Source of the DNA: a virus
Direction: 5' to 3' (one strand)
DNA length: 64,000 nucleotides
IMG/VR virus record: IMGVR_UViG_3300045049_000070
Coordinates: 8,412 to 72,411 of that record
Below the pieces are notes generated by a model. That model ran no database searches and was not told the origin of the DNA. It saw only the letters and a list, made by a program, of their open reading frames with translations. Shown in pieces: positions 10 to 63,877 of this stretch (the stretch's first letter is position 1; every line of letters begins with the position of its first letter). The position numbers and the translations under genes are program-made.

Positions 10-1497
10 ATGACGCAAAGCATTCCGTTCTACACGGACAGCTATAAACCATCAATGGATCCTCAGTATCCACCGGAGGTGGAAACCGTCCACAGCTATG
101 GAGAATCGCGGGGTGCTCCAGTCGATCATGTGATGATGGCTGGAAACCAAGTCTTCGTCGACAAGTTGGCGGAAGGCACAAACATGCGTGAAGTCAATTT
201 CGCACGTGAGTATTGGGCAGCGCATGGCGTACCCTTTCCGTACGAAATGTGGAAGACCATCGTCAAAGAATATGGTGGACGAATCCCACTGACAATTCGT
301 GCGGTACCAGAAGGGATTCTGATCCCGCCACGTAATCCGCTGGTGACCGTGGAGAACAACGGTGGGCGTGCAACTCGGGCCCTAACCACATGGGTAGAGA
401 CGATGGGTCTGTCGTATCTTTGGTACATGTCTACTGTTGCAACAAACGACTACTACCTCAGACAAACAATCGGGAAGTATTACGAATTGAGTGTCGACGC
501 TGGTCTCTACGATCCAGGTCGTTTATTCCGCGACCACGACTTCGGATGGCGTGGCGTTGCTCCAGGAGCGGGTATTTACGGTGGAGGAGCGCACACGTTC
601 AACTCGTTGGGCACTGACACATTCGGTTCTATCCCGTTCATGTGTTGGCACTATGGTGCGGCACCGAACGAGGTTGGATTCTCGATTCCGGCTATGGAGC
701 ACAGCACGGTTACTTCGTGGGGCAAGGATCGTGAAAACGACGCGTTCCTCAACATGACGGAAATCTACGCACATTCGAGTCGCCCATATGCGATGGTGAT
801 AGACAGCTATGATCCGGAACGTGCTGTCGAGTGGATCACCAATCCTGATGGACCGATCGTCAAGATCCTGAAGGAGCGCAATGCCATCTGTGTGTTGCGT
901 CCTGACAGTGGAAATCCGACCGAACTACTTCCAAAGTTGGCACAGATCGTAGCACGGAACGTTGGTTATACGACCAACAAGAAGGGCTACAAGATCTTCA
1001 ACTACTTCCGATTTATCTGGGGTGATGGTATCACGCACGAAGTCATCAATCGTATCGAGAACATGATGGTGTCTATCATGGGCTTCTCAGCAGAAAACTT
1101 CGCCTTTGGCCAAGGCGGAGCCAAACTCCAGTTGGTAGGTCGTGATGATCTCCAGTTCGCATACAAATGCTCGGCTGTGCGTTTAACCCATGGTTCGTGG
1201 CGGAATGTCTATAAGCAGCCTGCTGGTATCTTGAACAAGAACTCGAAGATGGGTCTGGTTGAAACATTCGTTCTTGACCCAAGTAATTGGGAGTACGATG
1301 ACATTTTGTATGTACGTGACATTCGCGACACCGAATCCATCGAAAGACTGAAGCTCGTTCCATTGATGGAAACTGTGTTCGAAAACGGAATAGTGGAAAA
1401 ACGATGGACCATAAAAGAAGTACGAGCGAACACTGAAAGAATCTACAAGAACGCTCCACAAGGTCACAGCGCTGGCGTTTACCCGCCTTTGGTGTGA
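10..1497 (+). CDS. nadV: nicotinamide phosphoribosyltransferase (NAMPT)
   Basis: 495 aa with NAMPT motifs TDSYK, HDFGxRG, SIPAxEHS, DSYD, RPDSG, GDGI, FGxGG. Confidence 0.93.
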   Translation: MTQSIPFYTDSYKPSMDPQYPPEVETVHSYGESRGAPVDHVMMAGNQVFVDKLAEGTNMREVNFAREYWAAHGVPFPYEMWKTIVKEYGGRIPLTIRAVPEGILIPPRNPLVTVENNGGRATRALTTWVETMGLSYLWYMSTVATNDYYLRQTIGKYYELSVDAGLYDPGRLFRDHDFGWRGVAPGAGIYGGGAHTFNSLGTDTFGSIPFMCWHYGAAPNEVGFSIPAMEHSTVTSWGKDRENDAFLNMTEIYAHSSRPYAMVIDSYDPERAVEWITNPDGPIVKILKERNAICVLRPDSGNPTELLPKLAQIVARNVGYTTNKKGYKIFNYFRFIWGDGITHEVINRIENMMVSIMGFSAENFAFGQGGAKLQLVGRDDLQFAYKCSAVRLTHGSWRNVYKQPAGILNKNSKMGLVETFVLDPSNWEYDDILYVRDIRDTESIERLKLVPLMETVFENGIVEKRWTIKEVRANTERIYKNAPQGHSAGVYPPLV

Positions 1498-8124: not shown

Positions 8125-8696
8125 CTAATCGTCCAGAGACTGCTGAGACCTATAAAGACTATATTGAGATTCTGAAAAGGAAATATAAACTGCGAGTATT
8201 AGGTGATGGAGCGTTCGGAACAGTGTTCCAGCACCCCACCTTGAAGAACGTAGCAGTGAAGGTCTACAGACAAGTGAAATGGATGTCAGCAACCAAATGG
8301 TTGGAATGGTGCAAGAAGCATCCGGAGAATCCTTACGTTCCTAAGATCTATAAGGTTGATTCTCTCCAAATAGAACAAGAAGGCTATCAACGATACCTGC
8401 ATAACGTGGTGTTTATGGAGAAACTATCTCGCGTTTCATCCACCTTTGTCGACGAGGTTCTTCAGAAAACAGGAGCATCAACCCATGTCTTGTATAAGAC
8501 AGTTGATGAAGGAAGACTTGTGTACGAATTCTATTCGGATTCACGCAAGAATGTTCGTACTCTGAAAGACAAGAAATTGGCAGAAGTGCTATTGGCGATA
8601 GATCAGTTTGGCGATCAGTCTGATGGAACAGATTTGCGATATTCAAATTTCCTTCGTCGGGATCAACAATTGGTGTTCGTTGATCCTGTGAGGTAA
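8115..8696 (+). CDS. protein kinase-like protein with class I leader (MAITNR)
   Basis: LGDGAFGTV Gly loop, VAVK, DLRYSN catalytic loop, FVDP. Confidence 0.75.
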   Translation: MAITNRPETAETYKDYIEILKRKYKLRVLGDGAFGTVFQHPTLKNVAVKVYRQVKWMSATKWLEWCKKHPENPYVPKIYKVDSLQIEQEGYQRYLHNVVFMEKLSRVSSTFVDEVLQKTGASTHVLYKTVDEGRLVYEFYSDSRKNVRTLKDKKLAEVLLAIDQFGDQSDGTDLRYSNFLRRDQQLVFVDPVR

Positions 8697-23400: not shown

Positions 23401-23624
23401 TGGCGATCAAGAACAGAATTCAAGCCAGTACCAGGATTAAGGGCTGGTTTCTAAAAGCAACAGATGATCAAGAGTACGCGCAGCGAATTAACTCGATCAT
23501 CAACTGGTTGAAGGGTGCACACTTCATTGATCTTGCGGTTCGAATCAATGGGAAAGATGAACGAGAACAAGGCGATTGGGTCAAGTACCTAGAGCCAGTG
23601 TTTGGAGAAGAAGATGTCACTTAA
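23400..23624 (+). CDS. class I leader protein, paralog B
   Basis: MAIKNRIQA; GWFL, KGAHFI, RIxGxDE, DW shared with 22889. Confidence 0.75.
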   Translation: MAIKNRIQASTRIKGWFLKATDDQEYAQRINSIINWLKGAHFIDLAVRINGKDEREQGDWVKYLEPVFGEEDVT

Positions 23625-24075
23625 GAAAGTAGAAGCAGCACAAATTAGCGCGGCCGGGATTATCTTTGTGCATGATGGACAGTTCTTGTTAATCATGCGT
23701 GCGCGTGATGTTGTCTCTCCATCTGTGTGGTGCGGAGCTGGTGGAAAGATCGAACCGGGCGAAACACCGGAACAGGCCGCCATACGCGAGTCTGAGGAAG
23801 AAATTGGGTTTCCATCTGATTTGCCAATGGAACTGATTCCGCTATATGTGTTCAATAGCGACAGTCTGGTATTTCATAACTATATCGGATGGCTAAAGGG
23901 TGACCGATTTGACCCTAAGCTGAATTGGGAGTCAGATGGATGGGCATGGTTCACGATGGAGAATCTGCCACAGAATGGATTACACTTCGGCTTTCAGGCT
24001 ATACTGTCTGATCCAATGGCAGCGTCCTTGTTGAACAGAACTATTGAAGGTTCCGTACTAAAGAGAGCAGAATGA
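23614..24075 (+). CDS. NUDIX hydrolase
   Basis: Nudix box GGKIEPGETPEQAAIRESEEEIG. Confidence 0.92.
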   Translation: MSLKKVEAAQISAAGIIFVHDGQFLLIMRARDVVSPSVWCGAGGKIEPGETPEQAAIRESEEEIGFPSDLPMELIPLYVFNSDSLVFHNYIGWLKGDRFDPKLNWESDGWAWFTMENLPQNGLHFGFQAILSDPMAASLLNRTIEGSVLKRAE

Positions 24076-57871: not shown

Positions 57872-57920
57872 AAATGACAAGGGGTCTGTAGATTCATCGT
57901 CTACAGACCCCTTTGCTTTT
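57872..57920. terminator. bidirectional intrinsic terminator
   Basis: 14-bp stem AAGGGGTCTGTAGA/TCTACAGACCCCTT between convergent genes. Confidence 0.85.
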
Positions 57921-57921
57921 A

Positions 57922-58164
57922 CTAGACGGTAAACGATTCTGCATCAATTTCAATGTGAAGCCAACCCTTTGAAATGATATGCAACTTACCGTCCTTTGTT
58001 TGCAGACGATGTGTTCCGCTTGAACGCGCAAGGAAGTGTGTTACGTTGTTTAACGTCACAGATCCACGTCTAAAGTGATAAGTCCTGCTCTTTTCCATTG
58101 GGAAGAGTTCCTGCAATACAAGAGCTTCTGCCGTTACTGGTTTTTCATCTTTCTTCTTAGCCAT
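57922..58164 (-). CDS. hypothetical protein
   Basis: AAGGA RBS. Confidence 0.7.
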   Translation of the reverse strand: MAKKKDEKPVTAEALVLQELFPMEKSRTYHFRRGSVTLNNVTHFLARSSGTHRLQTKDGKLHIISKGWLHIEIDAESFTV

Positions 58165-58181
58165 TCTTTATTCCTTTCTGT

Positions 58182-59651
58182 TTAAGCGCGCCACTTACCA
58201 TCTACGATTATCAAAAGCTGACGTTTTCCGTCTGCGTTCAATACACAATGAGCATTGAGCCATGAACTGGCTCCTCGGTTGTATTCCAGACGCAGAAACG
58301 TGCTGGTCCCCACCTGATAACAACCTTCTTCTATTCCAGGAGTATGTGAGTGACCAATGATACTCTTGTTGCTGATGCGACTCAGGTTCTTGATCGATCC
58401 ACGAGCACCATTCGGTCCTAGATTACCGTGCATGCCAAGCTCAACTTCCTGCAACATAAAGCTTTCGTCGATGTCTAGTATTCGACAGTTTGGCAGGTTT
58501 GCACGCTTTAGCCACAGAGCGAATGCTTCTGGGTATTCGGTTCCTTTGGCAGAAAATTTGGTTCCGCGAACCATTGCCAGAGCAGTTTCCAGATAGAATT
58601 CAGCATTTAGCGGATCATTACGCCAATCGTGCGAGTCAATCCAACGGCCAAGGAAATCGTTATGATTTGATGGGACAACGACCGATTCTGACCCCTTTGG
58701 CGTATGCGCGGCAATGAATTCAATTGCACGTTGAACTTCGTCACGCACACTTGCCGAGTTACCGACAAATTTGCCAACTTTCACCAACGGCTTTCCTGCA
58801 TGGTGTGGATTCACTGAGTAACCATCCAACAGATCATGCCACACTAGATACATAGGTTTTAGAGCGGAAACTATACCGTTCTTTCCAAACGTAGCCTCTA
58901 TGACTGCTGGATCTGCAGAATCTACGTGTGTATCGCCCATCACAAGAGCTAAAGCACGAGGTGCTTTCTCTACGCTATTTGCACGATATGTTTTATCAAG
59001 GTCAGTGCATGATCCGGAGACTTGATCGAAATGCAAATGTCGTAAGAAGAATTTAGTTGGTCCGTCTATCTCGACCAACACGGCGCTCAGGGAATGATGG
59101 AACTCACCTACAGCACCGGCTCGTGAATCTGTATAGTTTGGAATCGTGCAGGCACCTGTCGTTGTCAGTATCTTTGCCATACTATTGCTAGTGGCAGGAA
59201 CTGCTTTCATCTGGAGCTTTGTGTGTCCAATGATGCCTGAACTCGCGTTTGCAAACGCATCGAATCCCGTTAGAGGCGACGACGCTGTGGGTTGCGTTTT
59301 GATGTCACCTAAGATCGCAATATTCTTGTTGAACGACGCCCTACGATTCCATAGGTAGGGTTCTACTTCCTTTACCCAATATTCTTCGTTAGACGCACTA
59401 GCGCTCCAATGAGAAGTAGGATTCTTGTATCGGATAGGGATGACCAGCAATTCTGCCTTCAGTACCTTGCTCATATTGAGCAAAATGGCCCACCATACCT
59501 CGTTAACTGGAGTTCCATTCTGTGCCGCAGTAACAATGAATCGCTTACAGGTTTTAGAAATCTTGCGGTCTTCACCGAATTTTGTTAATGGTCTATCTGA
59601 CCGAAACATCGGACTATGAAGAACTTCAAAGTCCTTTAGGCTCTTGCTCAT
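58182..59651 (-). CDS. T5 A1-like metallophosphoesterase/nuclease
   Basis: VTAAQN.TP, RYKNP, GDTH, HD, SNH, HG..G.NG, GHSH. Confidence 0.75.
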   Translation of the reverse strand: MSKSLKDFEVLHSPMFRSDRPLTKFGEDRKISKTCKRFIVTAAQNGTPVNEVWWAILLNMSKVLKAELLVIPIRYKNPTSHWSASASNEEYWVKEVEPYLWNRRASFNKNIAILGDIKTQPTASSPLTGFDAFANASSGIIGHTKLQMKAVPATSNSMAKILTTTGACTIPNYTDSRAGAVGEFHHSLSAVLVEIDGPTKFFLRHLHFDQVSGSCTDLDKTYRANSVEKAPRALALVMGDTHVDSADPAVIEATFGKNGIVSALKPMYLVWHDLLDGYSVNPHHAGKPLVKVGKFVGNSASVRDEVQRAIEFIAAHTPKGSESVVVPSNHNDFLGRWIDSHDWRNDPLNAEFYLETALAMVRGTKFSAKGTEYPEAFALWLKRANLPNCRILDIDESFMLQEVELGMHGNLGPNGARGSIKNLSRISNKSIIGHSHTPGIEEGCYQVGTSTFLRLEYNRGASSWLNAHCVLNADGKRQLLIIVDGKWRA

Positions 59652-59977
59652 GTTGACATCTCACGCAATTTTGCAGCAAACGCCACAGTTCCTGCCCAGA
59701 CGTTCTTTCTGTGACTACCGTTTGATTTAACAGCCACTATGTGAGATTCGAACTGCTCTCTAAAATTTACTAGGTCGGTAGTAGAGATTCCTGCAATCTT
59801 CATGAAATCAATCTCGTACTCCCAGCTCTCCCCTAGTTTTGCTAAAGCATCCTTGATTTTCTTAGGAACTATATAGTTCTTATCGTGAGCTATTCGGAAG
59901 TCCTCGAGAGTTTTTCCTTTGACAGTCGTACGCTCGGACGACTTTACCGCCGCCGGTTTCGCTTTCTTAGAAGTCAT
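59648..59977 (-). CDS. hypothetical protein
   Basis: GAGGA RBS; coupled to A1-like gene. Confidence 0.7.
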   Translation of the reverse strand: MTSKKAKPAAVKSSERTTVKGKTLEDFRIAHDKNYIVPKKIKDALAKLGESWEYEIDFMKIAGISTTDLVNFREQFESHIVAVKSNGSHRKNVWAGTVAFAAKLREMST

Positions 59978-59989
59978 TAGCTTGTCCTC

Positions 59990-60445
59990 TCACTTTTTGG
60001 AAATCTGTTTCAGCCGGTGAACACGTACTGGACGCATTGAACCTGCGTCGATATCACATGCAATTTCAACCGCTCGTACTAGAGCCATGTCTGGATCCAT
60101 CCCAACTTCTGAGAACGCAGCAAGAGCTGCGCGTACAGGACCAGATCCAGTTCCTATTGAATATGGAGCTTTCTCGCGTCGTGGATAAAGCTTGTTGTCA
60201 TACCAGAACAAGCCTCGTTTGTTGAGCGACAAAGCGGCGAATTCGTCGTCTAGTTTCGGTTTCCGTCCTTTCCTTCCACTACGAACCCAGTCCATAAACT
60301 TGGCTCCGTCTACTGCGTCTCCTGCTAAACCGTAGAGAGTTCCTTTGTGTTCATGCACTTTGCTCTCTTCCCATTTCTGGTCGCCATCACTGACTTGCGA
60401 ATCGCATACCATCATAGACAAGTTTGCTGCGACAGTTGTCATCAT
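59990..60445 (-). CDS. Ntn-hydrolase (HslV/proteasome beta-like) peptidase
   Basis: N-terminal TTVA...CDSQ, LAG, IGTGSG, AV.IA..D. Confidence 0.7.
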   Translation of the reverse strand: MMTTVAANLSMMVCDSQVSDGDQKWEESKVHEHKGTLYGLAGDAVDGAKFMDWVRSGRKGRKPKLDDEFAALSLNKRGLFWYDNKLYPRREKAPYSIGTGSGPVRAALAAFSEVGMDPDMALVRAVEIACDIDAGSMRPVRVHRLKQISKK

Positions 60446-60450
60446 TGTTC

Positions 60451-61044
60451 CTATGTCTTAAATTGACGTGTGTCAGGTTCGGATGAGGGTGCAGAGTCAG
60501 GGTTTCGATTGGGAGCAGATTGTTCCGGAATCGGCGACTTTGGAGTAACTTCCGACGGAACTACGCGACGTGCAGAGTATGGATATTCATCTGTGTTTGG
60601 AGGACTTCCCCCATCTGATCCTCTTGTGCCACGCTCCATAATCGCCGTTCCGCCTTGTCTATGGATCTGTTGGGCGTTGTTCACAGCTTGTTCCATTTGT
60701 TTTGACCACGGTATACGTTGTAGTCTTGACGCTTGTGACCAAGGCTTTCTACTTAGGATCATTATGTCAATCCATTCCTTGGTCGAACTGTCTGCCGAAA
60801 GAACAACCGTATGTCCTAGATAGACGAACTTCTCTGGTAACTTCGATGGGTAAGCGTATCCTAGATGTTGTCCAATGATAGTGAAGCTGAAGAATGCTGC
60901 AACTATTAACACCGGACCGATTACCCACCGAGCTAATAGATTCTTATCAGACGTGTAATAGACGTATACGCACAGGGCGACAAATAATGTGCATAGTACG
61001 ATGATCGGAGCAAAGAGCCAGAGTTGATATTGTAACAAACTCAT
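60451..61044 (-). CDS. two-TM membrane protein of MotAB-like cassette
   Basis: two N-terminal TM helices and a soluble domain. Confidence 0.7.
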   Translation of the reverse strand: MSLLQYQLWLFAPIIVLCTLFVALCVYVYYTSDKNLLARWVIGPVLIVAAFFSFTIIGQHLGYAYPSKLPEKFVYLGHTVVLSADSSTKEWIDIMILSRKPWSQASRLQRIPWSKQMEQAVNNAQQIHRQGGTAIMERGTRGSDGGSPPNTDEYPYSARRVVPSEVTPKSPIPEQSAPNRNPDSAPSSEPDTRQFKT

Positions 61045-61052
61045 CTTAGTCC

Positions 61053-61682
61053 TTACTGTCCATTAAGACCTTGTTGTATGAACGGTATCTGGTCTTCAGT
61101 GTTGATGTTTGTTACTTGACCATCAGGAGTCAATTCGAACGAAACCAACGTTACCTGATCCCCAGGACGTGTTAACGATCTCGTACCATGTGCAACTTCT
61201 TTGAAGACTGGATTAATGTCGGTTAACTTGAAGTTAACCGCAATCTCTTTAGCCCAACTATCATCGACCTTTGCGTCAACGCTTATATGAGCAAAGTAAT
61301 GAGCGTTCACCACATACTTGCCTGGGATTATTGCCCGTATAGTGATAATCTCCTTATTGACTTCGATGATCTTCTTTTCACCTGTCAACGGATCTGTATA
61401 CGTATCACCGTAAGCGCCTCTATCATCTCGGTCCAGGACGGCTATACCTTGATCTTTTGACGAATAGCCAACTCTCTTTCCACCCGGAAGTAGCATCCAC
61501 AAGTCCATATCATCAGTGGACTTTGGATCCCATTCCATTTCGACAACAACTTCTGCTTTCTGTTCTATACTCTTCTTATTCTGTTGCGCCGTCTGCAATT
61601 GGAACAGCATGAACAACAGAAAGAACATGAGCATCAAGTTAGTCAGCGTATCTATATACGCGATGCTCGTGCTTCGATTCAT
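61053..61682 (-). CDS. MotB/ExbD-like single-TM protein with YfaP-like beta domain
   Basis: AYIDTL.. TM with Asp; W....DDMDLW; LDRDD; E.I.I...PG.Y.V..HY. Confidence 0.6.
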   Translation of the reverse strand: MNRSTSIAYIDTLTNLMLMFFLLFMLFQLQTAQQNKKSIEQKAEVVVEMEWDPKSTDDMDLWMLLPGGKRVGYSSKDQGIAVLDRDDRGAYGDTYTDPLTGEKKIIEVNKEIITIRAIIPGKYVVNAHYFAHISVDAKVDDSWAKEIAVNFKLTDINPVFKEVAHGTRSLTRPGDQVTLVSFELTPDGQVTNINTEDQIPFIQQGLNGQ

Positions 61683-62167
61683 GGACGATTACCGACCAGA
61701 CCGAGATTCAACACTTGTGCTTTGGTCAACACGCTACAGATTAGTCCCATAAGCGTATTGGACAACGCAATAGAGCCTGCCAAAACCATCTTTGTTGTTG
61801 ACTCCTGAAGAGTGGCAGGATCAGCACCTGATTTGAAGGCACTCATCATCATGATGAAGCCGATCACTGTACCAATTAGGCCAAGTGTTGTCATCAGATC
61901 AGGCAGATACTGTACTATTTCGTTATATAGATCTTCTGGATGAATTGTTAACGAAATAGTCTGTCCGGTTAATCGCCGATTGTATGACGAACACCAAGTT
62001 AGCCAACCTACAAAGAGCGAGCATGTGAAGTAAGCAGTTAGAGTAACAAAACTCACTTTGTAAACATCTAAGTCCCATAACTTAGACATTAAGCCAAAAA
62101 GGCTGAGCGCACCGATGATTACCGTGCTACAAACGAAGATGAACCACCACTTCAACATGCCGACCAT
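61679..62167 (-). CDS. MotA/TolQ/ExbB-like proton channel protein
   Basis: 4 TM; LGLIGTVIGF and ALSNTLMGL signature helices. Confidence 0.75.
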   Translation of the reverse strand: MVGMLKWWFIFVCSTVIIGALSLFGLMSKLWDLDVYKVSFVTLTAYFTCSLFVGWLTWCSSYNRRLTGQTISLTIHPEDLYNEIVQYLPDLMTTLGLIGTVIGFIMMMSAFKSGADPATLQESTTKMVLAGSIALSNTLMGLICSVLTKAQVLNLGLVGNRP

Positions 62168-62176
62168 AACATACTC

Positions 62177-63877
62177 CTATTCAGATTGATTCTTGATCTT
62201 TTCAAGACCACGTGGAGGGCGTAAGCCAACTTGATCCCAGAATGAAAGCATCACTCCTGGATCGAGGTAACTTTTCATCGCAGTTGCTCCAGTAACCTTC
62301 TGTTGTTTACCAACTCCCCTAACATGACCTAGCGTAGCACCGACCTCTGTCACAAACTGCTTGAACAACGCATCAGCCTGTGCTTGGTTCATCGTGTCTG
62401 GTTTCAACTTGGCTTTGTTCTTCTCCATTAGTTGCATGAAGATCTCAGTGCCTTTAACGTGACGCAACTTATGTGCTGTCACATTCGGTGGTCCCCCAAG
62501 ACGACGTAGCATTCCAGTTACTTCTCCACCGATGATAGGACGCATCCTTCCGTTTGGAAGCTCGTATTGAAATACTGGATCCTTAGGCTGCTTTCCGACC
62601 AAGAACTTCTTGATGTTCGCTACAAGATATTTGGCTTGTTGAGACCCTGTTCCTTGAATGACATGTGATTGTCTCACAGCGTCTTTTCCAGGATATACGA
62701 TCGTGATCACGTTTCCGTTTACCTTGAAATGCCGTGCTTGCAGCGTAGCGATTCCAAAGGTAGAAACGTTTTTGCCATTAACACTTGTTGCGTTACCTTT
62801 AGTTCCAACTCGTGCAGAGAACTGATACAGTAGTTCTAGGACAGTTGCCTGAACACAAGGCTTGGATAAATCGTTTCGTTTCAAATACGTCTGCCACGAA
62901 TTGTGGATCTTTTCCATGACGGCCATTAGCTGATGGACCATCTCAAATTTCTTACTGTTCTTTTGTTTTCTAAAGTCGACAGTGTAGACGTGCTGACTTA
63001 CTTCACCATTCTTTTCGTTGATAGTGGTAAACACATAGCCGTCATCCAGCTTCGGATTATAGTCAGGATTCATCTTGATCGTGAACCCAGAACCTTTTGC
63101 CGGAACACCACCATTGATCGCCTTCCCGGCCATTGTGTAAGTCTTGCCGTTTGCGTCTATCAGACCATCAAAACCCGGTTGCAACGGATGATCGATCTTC
63201 TTGCTGTTTAAGTAGTTCAGCACATCCTTGTAAGGAACAGCTTTCTGCTTAGACTTGACTATATATGCGTTCATCTCGTCTTTCCACACAAGGTTGTATT
63301 GCTTGCGGAGACGCATATACTCGCGGAAGATTTCTTTGTTCTTAGCACGCAGTTTTTCTGCCTGATCTTTGGTAAGAATGATTCCCTTCTTACCTGACAC
63401 TTTAGTTACGATCTTTTCTAATGGACGAATAAAATCCTTCTGTGATTGAGCTTCCGGAGCCAACGCTCGTTGAAGTACCGGCTCGTCCATTGCATTTACC
63501 AGCTTTCGTATCTTGCGCAAAGCTGGTTCACCATAATTGATTAGATAGGCAGAAGTCGCGGCCAGCAGGTCAACAGTGTTGTGATCGAACTTGCGGTCAG
63601 AACGTATTTCGTCTCTGACCGCTTGACGAAGTGTTTTCATCCTTGACGAAAGATCTTCTTCGTCTACTGTTTCTCCCTTTATTATACGTAGCAGAGTGCC
63701 TACTACATCCACTACCATCGCTTGTTCTGCTCTTTTAGCGCCTGAAACAACGGATGTTGCCAGCGTTTTCAGTTCTTGAGTAGTTGATCCGCGTGCGGTG
63801 ACAGCACACGCGGCTACTAGAAGCTTGATAAGTGATTCCAATTGCTGATTTGGAATCCCGGCAAACACGAAATCCAT
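62177..63877 (-). CDS. type IB DNA topoisomerase-like protein
   Basis: catalytic pentad ARVG (R), PGK (K), HKLR (R), LGH (H), KSY (Y). Confidence 0.78.
   Translation of the reverse strand: MDFVFAGIPNQQLESLIKLLVAACAVTARGSTTQELKTLATSVVSGAKRAEQAMVVDVVGTLLRIIKGETVDEEDLSSRMKTLRQAVRDEIRSDRKFDHNTVDLLAATSAYLINYGEPALRKIRKLVNAMDEPVLQRALAPEAQSQKDFIRPLEKIVTKVSGKKGIILTKDQAEKLRAKNKEIFREYMRLRKQYNLVWKDEMNAYIVKSKQKAVPYKDVLNYLNSKKIDHPLQPGFDGLIDANGKTYTMAGKAINGGVPAKGSGFTIKMNPDYNPKLDDGYVFTTINEKNGEVSQHVYTVDFRKQKNSKKFEMVHQLMAVMEKIHNSWQTYLKRNDLSKPCVQATVLELLYQFSARVGTKGNATSVNGKNVSTFGIATLQARHFKVNGNVITIVYPGKDAVRQSHVIQGTGSQQAKYLVANIKKFLVGKQPKDPVFQYELPNGRMRPIIGGEVTGMLRRLGGPPNVTAHKLRHVKGTEIFMQLMEKNKAKLKPDTMNQAQADALFKQFVTEVGATLGHVRGVGKQQKVTGATAMKSYLDPGVMLSFWDQVGLRPPRGLEKIKNQSE

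Follow-up and report, generated by a model that had tools for sequence, protein, structure and literature searches.

The final 64 kb of a 72.4-kb IMG/VR virus record (IMGVR_UViG_3300045049_000070, positions 8,412 to 72,411; this whole 64,000-nucleotide stretch is called the window below) encode a cassette of three membrane proteins, A, B, and C, in which A belongs to the MotA/ExbB family and B carries a conserved aspartate in a single transmembrane (TM) helix. Here, we describe the gene content, homology, synteny, and distribution of the cassette, together with the conserved Asp and the fold of the soluble head of B. Rather than being specific to phages, the cassette is a reduced version, carried by a phage, of a three-gene module that is widespread in bacteria and has no name. 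The interpretation that we favor, with slightly better than even confidence, is that A and B make up a proton- or ion-conducting unit of the A5B2 type with a periplasmic output, that C is its third subunit, and that the assembly works on the envelope in infection.

A first-pass annotation of the window, made from the sequence alone, had placed three membrane-protein genes at 60451..62167, and the three open reading frames (ORFs) are present there on the minus strand (Table 1). The start of B overlaps the stop of A as ATGA, and C begins 8 nt beyond B. Neither B nor C falls into a named family in Pfam, NCBIfam, PHROGs, or PADLOC, and a PHROGs family was not found for A either.

Table 1. Features of the cassette and of the genes and signals next to it (window coordinates unless a locus is named; aa, amino acids)
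Feature	Position	Strand	Description or basis
A	61679..62167	-	ORF, 162 aa; four-TM MotA/ExbB/TolQ-family protein
A core: TM3, periplasmic loop, TM4 (residues 83-147)	61727..61921	-	Pfam range; aligned to MotA, ZorA, TolQ, and ExbB chains
B	61053..61682	-	ORF, 209 aa; single-TM, MotB/ExbD-like, with TerD/DUF2135-like beta-sandwich head
B Asp11 codon (GAT)	61650..61652	-	Candidate ion-binding Asp near cytoplasmic start of TM helix; D in 128/129 aligned relatives
B head (residues 45-205)	61068..61550	-	Model, structure comparison, and invariant columns
C	60451..61044	-	ORF, 197 aa; two-TM hairpin, small beta/alpha domain, linker, C-terminal motif, and Pro-rich tail
C TM hairpin (residues 3-60; helices 3-31 and 36-60)	60865..61038	-	Predicted N-out/C-out; model and charges
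C soluble domain (residues 62-138)	60631..60861	-	G62, LGY/WP motif, R107; predicted periplasmic; alignment and pLDDT
C residues 156-169 (YSARRVVPSEVTPK)	60538..60579	-	Corresponds to the motif YDLPDPxxPEK at the C terminus of bacterial C
HslV-like gene	59990-60445	-	Directly downstream of C
Terminator-like hairpin, strong, bidirectional	57879..57913	both	14- to 15-bp stem; closes the block 57922-63877
ClpP gene	L005 5397-5984		Directly downstream of C
ClpS gene	L006 5087-5401		Directly downstream of C
ClpS gene	L009 4664-5002		Directly downstream of C
ClpS gene	L010 4651-4953		Directly downstream of C
ClpS gene	L011 4664-4966		Directly downstream of C
ClpS gene	L012 4659-4961		Directly downstream of C

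Protein A is recognized by the Pfam model MotA_ExbB (PF01618) over residues 83 to 147 with 28.6 bits, above the cutoff of 22.9, which bears out the annotated MotA/ExbB-like half of the pair. The same cutoff was passed by two of three Rhizobium phage A proteins (the third scored 20.5) and by all four bacterial A proteins scanned. Searched alone, A gave weak matches to ZorA, PomA, and ExbB models, the ZorA models being the best in PADLOC and NCBIfam; the ZorA and ZorB matches of the cassette lie far below the family cutoffs of both collections. A profile of 18 A-family sequences matched the solved chains of MotA (8gqy; E = 7e-4) and ZorA (8qyh; E = 7.5e-4) over TM3-TM4 and, more weakly over the same helices, those of TolQ (E = 0.033) and ExbB (E = 0.13). 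G96, G99, T138, G141, and Q151 are invariant in the 18 sequences and T100, which sits in the motif LGLIGTV, is nearly so; the conserved columns align to the GxIGT and AlitTlxG motifs of MotA 8gqy. In ExbB and TolQ, ions travel along a path lined by Thr residues of the last two TM helices. A tblastn search with A against cultured phages returned no match, although Pfam finds MotA_ExbB upstream of B in Rhizobium phages.

A has four hydrophobic stretches. Summed over the 18 sequences, its N terminus holds 21 Lys or Arg residues against 2 Asp or Glu residues and its TM3-TM4 loop holds 13 against 35, and this charge pattern, with the four stretches, fits the topology of MotA. Absent from the window protein is the sizeable cytoplasmic domain of MotA, ExbB, TolQ, and ZorA, as only about 25 residues lie between TM2 and TM3. 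Bacterial A proteins (215 to 293 aa) have a 70- to 80-residue insert at this place and a C-terminal extension, both of which are missing from all phage A proteins (143 to 178 aa, as the length aligned by the hidden Markov model [HMM]). The 13 solved A-subunit chains listed are all at least 230 aa long, longer than phage A.

One conceivable use of so small a subunit is interference, in which phage subunits would mix with or block the host's ExbBD, TolQR, MotAB, or ZorAB and so disable TonB-dependent receptors, the Tol system, flagella, or Zorya. In principle, foreign rings might admit a minimal A, and the A core does score closest to ZorA and MotA models. However, A resembles known motors in TM3-TM4 only, at E values of about 1e-3, and no mimic of ZorC/ZorD, TonB, or TolA is encoded. 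The cassette also brings its own B and C, and it does so in bacterial chromosomes as well, where poisoning would amount to self-harm. We consider interference very unlikely.

The AF2 model of B (predicted local distance difference test [pLDDT] score, 93.7) consists of a long TM helix (residues 3 to 32), a linker of about 12 residues, and a beta-sandwich. The first-pass annotation had noted an Asp at the start of this helix and had named its conservation as a check. In an alignment of B relatives (129 of the best 150 profile matches plus close relatives), Asp11 is retained in 128 of 129 sequences, so that the MotB/ExbD-like half of the pair also stands. The TM region matched B-subunit models weakly (ZorB1, E = 3e-4 over residues 4 to 43; MotB, E = 0.14), and the helix bears a sequence pattern that we take to be of the MotB kind. 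Considered jointly, the conserved Asp in a lone TM helix, a start codon that couples B translationally to a MotA/ExbB-family gene, and genes that strictly co-occur make an ion-conducting A-B unit of the ExbBD/MotAB type the most economical reading.

The remainder of B is more unusual. W51, D58, D60, D86, E111, and G121 are invariant in the 129 relatives, and D87 is found in 127 of them. The family is large, with 1,627 clusters at 50% identity at E ≤ 1e-3 and 950 at E ≤ 1e-10 in an exhaustive profile search. Pfam found no OmpA-like or ExbD/TolR-type periplasmic domain in B or in its 129 relatives, in keeping with the annotated lack of an OmpA-like head. The description of that head as YfaP-like holds in part. 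DUF2135 (PF09906) is the nearest named sequence family, matched weakly and below threshold in 6 of the 129 relatives (best E = 6e-4), and is the nearest named cluster to B by features in the ESM Atlas (0.87), where one structural row points the same way; window B itself had no DUF2135 match in the Pfam scan. The clearest structural likeness is instead to TerD. VIA-align superposed the B head on the TerD homologues 2qz7_B (Z = 10.3; root mean square deviation [rmsd], 3.5; 133 residues aligned) and 2kxt (Z = 9.6; rmsd, 3.6; 135 residues aligned), the next entry having a Z value of 6.1, and Foldseek agreed on this likeness with a probability of 1.0. The TerD fold is a Ca2+-binding one, and the B head is probably Ca2+ binding. 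Searched against the PDB sequences, the B profile gave marginal matches only (E = 0.11 to 0.71), among them the Ca2+-binding jelly-roll of Tk-subtilisin (‘WD..sDLDLyl.dPnG’), and we did not use these as evidence.

These features of A and B bear on a second alternative, namely, that A and B, perhaps with C, form a regulated ion leak, a channel that dissipates or senses the membrane potential to time lysis or shut down energy-dependent processes of the host and that does no mechanical work. The cassette has no peptidoglycan anchor and no A cytoplasmic domain, a plug of convincing length is likewise missing (MotB_plug was matched in just 3 of 129 B relatives), and, left unplugged, so bare a core would let ions pass. 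A leak, however, would have no need of the large and highly conserved head that B places in the periplasm, nor of the conserved domain in C. Moreover, bacteria keep B and C in their chromosomes, which argues against a simply toxic leak, and no holin or endolysin genes lie beside the cassette in the loci read. A leak appears distinctly unlikely to us.

As the first-pass annotation had it, a two-TM protein follows the pair: C is present in all 10 viral loci and at 26 of 30 bacterial places, and alignment shows it to be homologous to the third gene of every cassette compared. The C model has a pLDDT of 78.7 overall and of about 90 over residues 70 to 140. Over 21 sequences, the N terminus of C has no Lys or Arg residues, while the loop between its helices has 47 Lys or Arg residues against 3 Asp or Glu residues, a pattern that places the loop inside and predicts a periplasmic location for the conserved domain. 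Toward the C terminus, P163 is nearly invariant in the alignment, and the model has a short strand at residues 156 to 161. Foldseek gave no match to C at E ≤ 0.001. The VIA-align list for C was filled by helical hairpins on residues 1 to 63 (best Z = 6.9), and its OB-like rows were weak and not interpretable. With the list so filled, neither search matched C to TonB or TolA. A complex prediction for B residues 36 to 209 with C residues 56 to 197, run without controls, reached a best score of 0.31 against a mark of 0.32 and speaks neither for nor against binding. As a separate matter, we considered a holin or spanin identity for C and rejected it because C is also chromosomal in bacteria, in the same operon.

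The order A-B-C is kept in all 10 distinct viral loci compared (the window, three Rhizobium phage lineages, and six IMG/VR contigs) and recurs in bacteria, which answers the neighborhood survey that the first-pass annotation had suggested. B occurs in cultured phages only in 23 Rhizobium phage records, RefSeq duplicates included. We took one record from each of the three genome-size groups of these phages (about 68, 153, and 171 kb); in all three, a short MotA_ExbB-like gene and a C homologue lie on either side of B, and all of these are annotated as ‘hypothetical’. Scans of IMG/VR yielded seven further A-B-C loci, six of them distinct, on contigs that IMG/VR classes as viral, one as a provirus. 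HMMs detected C in 9 of the 10 viral loci; in L010, C was recognized by eye and by alignment. As the local A and C HMMs were built partly from loci L002 to L007, only L009 to L013 and the bacterial loci are independent tests.

Such conservation bears on whether the genes do anything at all. That they are chance ORFs or a decayed, functionless remnant could be argued from their absence from the PHROGs families and from a frameshifted copy in one bacterial metagenome-assembled genome (MAG; locus L008). Yet the reading frames are intact, the genes are coupled, the 1,627 B clusters share invariant residues, the gene order is kept across distant phages and bacteria, and the B and C models have the pLDDT values given above. 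We regard this explanation as extremely improbable.

The cassette is not confined to viruses. Searching 400 genomes of the class to which a cassette-bearing Ramlibacter MAG belongs, we found a match to the B profile in 50, most at E values of 1e-60 to 1e-75. At 30 distinct bacterial places, A was adjacent to B in 29 and C in 26, the misses being due to high-GC or fragmented ORF calls. The annotated view of the cassette as a device of the phage's own making thus has to be dropped, as the module is chromosomal in bacteria and not a phage invention. In a maximum-likelihood tree of 43 B sequences (root unknown), the 28 bacterial rows formed one clade (support, 100/97), and the 10 phage rows fell outside it on long branches. 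Window B grouped with two metagenomic proteins, then with the copy of the Ramlibacter MAG, and then with the Rhizobium phages. The tree excludes duplicates from the same place (L001, L013, L024 to L026, and L030 to L032), the frameshifted L008, L039 (near L038), and the overextended L044.

Two neighborhoods recur around the bacterial cassettes. In the first, an optional YkuD L,D-transpeptidase gene and a DUF302 gene precede A-B-C, and a gene for a protein of about 500 aa with vWA and FHA domains follows. This arrangement is complete in L025, L030, and L034, lacks YkuD in L026, and is partial in L036, L043, L045, and L047. DUF302 adjoins the cassette upstream in four loci, and YkuD lies at most two genes upstream in five. 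The vWA-FHA gene is found downstream in L025, L026, L030, L034, and L043, with DUF302 upstream in the first four of these and not in L043; an FHA-only ORF lies downstream in L047, and tilS/accA follow beyond the vWA-FHA gene in L025. In the second neighborhood, A-B-C is followed by a DUF3108-like gene (L024, L027, L032, L035, L044, L048, and L049); this gene comes directly after the cassette in seven loci and lies two genes down in L024. In addition, a convergent gene for a PP2C plus FGE-sulfatase protein is present in L040 and L041, and an NlpC/P60 gene follows the cassette in one locus. The vWA-FHA and PP2C plus FGE-sulfatase neighbors suggest phospho-dependent regulation of the bacterial cassette. 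Through the A insert and perhaps the FHA protein, the bacterial form probably takes in or hands on something on its cytoplasmic side, a link with which the phage form dispenses.

Given this distribution, the phage copy might simply substitute for a host function, keeping a bacterial envelope module running after host shutoff with no phage-specific activity. The same three genes are indeed chromosomal in many genomes of one bacterial class, and the cassette has host-like neighbors in marine-type viral contigs (DnaK, Hsp20, ClpS, ClpP, SbmA/BacA, FTR1, and NifU). However, the cytoplasmic insert and C-terminal extension of the bacterial protein are absent from every phage A, the position of phage B outside the well-supported bacterial clade on long branches is unlike that of recent host captures, and the bacterial partners (vWA-FHA, DUF302, and DUF3108-like proteins) are missing from the phage loci. 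A substitute of this kind is unlikely in our judgment.

Two copies in Ramlibacter MAGs stand apart. The first (L007, 4523-6217), on a high-GC contig, is a phage-type cassette with an A protein of 156 aa and a B protein 40% identical to window B. Its neighbors, as read from translations only, are response regulators (one with a LuxR-type DNA-binding end), a pyridine-nucleotide disulfide oxidoreductase-like ORF, and a TraR/DksA-like zinc-finger ORF, and the cassette may be part of a phage-derived island. The second (L008, 4983-6205, in another MAG) is a short-A cassette in which B and C are interrupted, with one TGA and one TAG codon in the B match; this copy is either decaying or the result of an assembly error.

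Under the reading that we favor, a ring of A subunits would surround a dimer of B TM helices, as in MotAB, ExbBD, TolQR, and ZorAB, in a ratio of 5 to 2. Asp11 of B would take up and release protons (or Na+) flowing through the A-B unit down the membrane gradient, and this flow would move A relative to B. As phage A is virtually without a cytoplasmic domain and the head of B starts about 12 residues past the helix, the output is expected to be periplasmic or within the membrane. It would pass through the TerD/DUF2135-like, putatively Ca2+-binding heads of B and through C, the likely third subunit, which may serve as an anchor or as the driven element. During infection, the assembly would probably use this energy to act on the envelope or the inner membrane of its diderm host.

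Several points weigh against this proposal. The Pfam score of A is modest, and the matches of the B TM region to ZorB and MotB models are weak; the B profile, searched against PDB sequences, found no solved ExbD, TolR, or MotB and no TerD chain at E ≤ 10. The 5:2 stoichiometry is borrowed from the family by analogy. Since B has no peptidoglycan-binding or ExbD-type domain and its linker is very short, there is no evident anchor that would hold one part still, and the A-B unit may be a gated channel instead of a motor. TerD itself is cytoplasmic, and the TerD Pfam model (PF02342) was unmatched at E ≤ 0.01 in the 129 B relatives. Finally, the phage loci give no hint of a particular target, and the neighbors in viral loci are mostly cytoplasmic proteostasis genes and not envelope genes.

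For the role in infection, our preferred guess is envelope conditioning or the exclusion of superinfecting phages. Phage-borne Ter components, including TerD, have been proposed to serve in competition with superinfecting phages in the available text of a comparative jumbo-phage paper that concerns canonical Ter (PMC7824862). We lean toward these roles owing to that proposal and to the envelope-related bacterial neighbors; as B resembles TerD by fold only, the transfer of the Ter proposal is limited. A stronger version, in which several unrelated tailed-phage lineages carry a self-contained, minimal ion-driven rotary unit that does mechanical work in the periplasm, for instance, in phage exclusion or in envelope or lysis control, is possible but doubtful. 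Its parts would be an A ring cut down to the membrane core, a B axle whose TerD-like head binds Ca2+, and C as a dedicated two-TM partner. If true, this would be the smallest natural 5:2 motor and the first such family to be encoded by viruses, and the bacterial sister module, in which A has gained a cytoplasmic domain and vWA-FHA or DUF3108-like proteins act as partners, would add another undescribed envelope machine to the Tol/Ton/Mot/Zor group.

The genes around the viral cassettes follow a pattern of their own. In seven viral loci, the gene immediately 3′ of C encodes a cytoplasmic-protease component from one of three families (Table 1). Pfam places the cassette between Hsp20 and ClpS genes in the marine-type viral contigs L006, L009, L010, and L012, with matches on both sides, and beside ClpS only in L011, and genes for DnaK, an SbmA/BacA-like protein, FTR1, and NifU lie close to the cassette in the marine-type contigs. 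The cassette of L005 lies between an SbmA-like gene and ClpP. Because the Hsp20/ClpS synteny is common to L006 and L009 to L012, the seven cases represent at most about three independent protease associations, and the pairing may reflect chance or a functional link. On contigs L009 to L012 (up to 242 kb), Pfam detected DnaK, Hsp20, ClpS, NifU, an Fe-S assembly protein, FTR1, SbmA/BacA, and aldehyde dehydrogenase together, and L010 also has ribosomal protein L7/L12-like and cysteine desulfurase-like ORFs, read from translations only. These four contigs represent either very large phages with many host-like genes or cellular DNA that was classified wrongly.

The window record has a CheckV completeness of 29%. 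The window encodes a DNA polymerase, a helicase, a single-stranded DNA-binding protein, a UvsX-like recombinase, SbcCD, a clamp loader, and a head-tail connector. Its polymerase is 35 to 40% identical to the closest relatives, which belong to 220- to 260-kb jumbo phages of Achromobacter, Burkholderia, Ralstonia, and Xanthomonas. As these are jumbo phages of diderm hosts, we read the window as part of a phiRSL1-like jumbo phage, whose host would, on this sequence relationship, be a diderm too. DNA near-identical to the window was not found among cultured phages. Window DNA was present in eight sequencing runs, all of soil or rhizosphere DNA and two of them possible sources, with no RNA run listed among the eight.

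From 63877 down to 57922, every gene of the window lies on the minus strand, with 4-nt overlaps or spacings of 5 to 17 nt. The order in this block is a topoisomerase IB-like gene, A, B, C, the HslV-like peptidase gene, a gene for a 109-aa protein, a ‘DNA transfer protein’ gene, and a gene for an 80-aa protein. The 566-aa protein encoded directly upstream of A (62177-63877, minus strand) matches the catalytic core of a eukaryotic-type topoisomerase IB (Topoisom_I, E = 1.2e-20) and also phrog_23460 (E = 1.5e-101). The 489-aa ‘DNA transfer protein’ (58182-59651, minus strand) matches phrog_1745 (T5 A1-like; E = 1.1e-142) and is encoded near the contig end, a placement that, should this end be the true genome end, would recall a T5-style pre-early region. 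Elsewhere in the window, a nicotinamide phosphoribosyltransferase (10-1497, plus strand; phrog_448, E = 1.7e-101) and a Nudix hydrolase (23602-24075) are encoded, which suggests a nicotinamide adenine dinucleotide salvage module in this phage.

Flagella, gliding, Ton and Tol transport, and Zorya defense all run on ion-driven 5:2 motors, and each new branch has shown a new route for energy from the inner membrane into the envelope. The short phage A offers an appealing minimal system for structural and single-molecule studies of motor rotation, and as the Rhizobium phages are culturable carriers, the role of a virus's own putative proton motor is directly testable. We found no description of the cassette in the literature, including two surveys from 2025, one on MotAB homologues (PMC12505986) and one on periplasmic force transducers (PMC12204202), and none in a comparative (PMC7824862) or a gut (PMC12880540) jumbo-phage paper, supplements aside in each case.

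Among the known systems, ZorA-ZorB of Zorya (8qyd, 8qyh, and 8vvn; available text of PMC11946911 and PMC11890865) shares with the cassette the TM3-TM4 core and the adjacency of A and B and gives the best match to the B TM helix. It differs in the length of ZorA, whose chains have 280 to 729 aa and a long cytoplasmic tail compared with the 162 aa of window A, and in the OmpA-like peptidoglycan-binding domain of ZorB, which phage B does not have; the cassette has instead a two-TM third protein. Neither C nor the neighbors scanned matched ZorC, ZorD, or ZorE in PADLOC or NCBIfam.

ExbB-ExbD-TonB and TolQ-TolR-TolA resemble the cassette in plan: in each, two membrane proteins make up an ion-driven unit, and a third, anchored in the membrane, acts as its partner in the periplasm. 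ExbD D25 and TolR D23 are essential Asp residues near the cytoplasmic end of the single TM helix, comparable to Asp11 of B, and the Pro-rich tail of window C is a further likeness. Phage B, unlike ExbD and TolR, has a TerD-like beta-sandwich as its head, and phage A, unlike ExbB and TolQ, has four TM helices and no large cytoplasmic domain. C, unlike TonB and TolA, has two TM helices, no SHLS-type motif, and no match to the TonB or TolA C-terminal domain; Pfam, NCBIfam, and PADLOC scans found no TonB- or TolA-like partner in the cassette.

MotA-MotB and PomA-PomB share with the cassette a four-TM A protein of MotA-like topology, and MotA 8gqy is the best solved match to the A profile. In contrast to the flagellar stator, the cassette has neither a cytoplasmic domain for torque generation nor an OmpA-like domain, and it offers no convincing plug. 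The virus-encoded motA/motB genes reported from glacier ice are of a different type, as they carry a peptidoglycan-binding motif according to the available text (PMC8290583).

The head of B finds its counterpart in TerD (2kxt, 2qz7, and 2qng), with which it shares the fold and to which the invariant acidic residues D58, D60, D86, and E111 of B invite comparison. TerD is a soluble, cytoplasmic tellurite-resistance protein, whereas the B head is membrane tethered and predicted to be periplasmic. For DUF2135 (YfaP in Escherichia coli), we know of no function, and our search of the literature on DUF2135/YfaP found nothing relevant. Compared with every described branch, the cassette is new in the TerD/DUF2135-like head of B on its short linker, in a C protein of no known family, and in a phage A protein without a cytoplasmic domain. 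Both its B head and its third subunit are thus new, joined to the conserved core of these motors in a form that is common yet unnamed.

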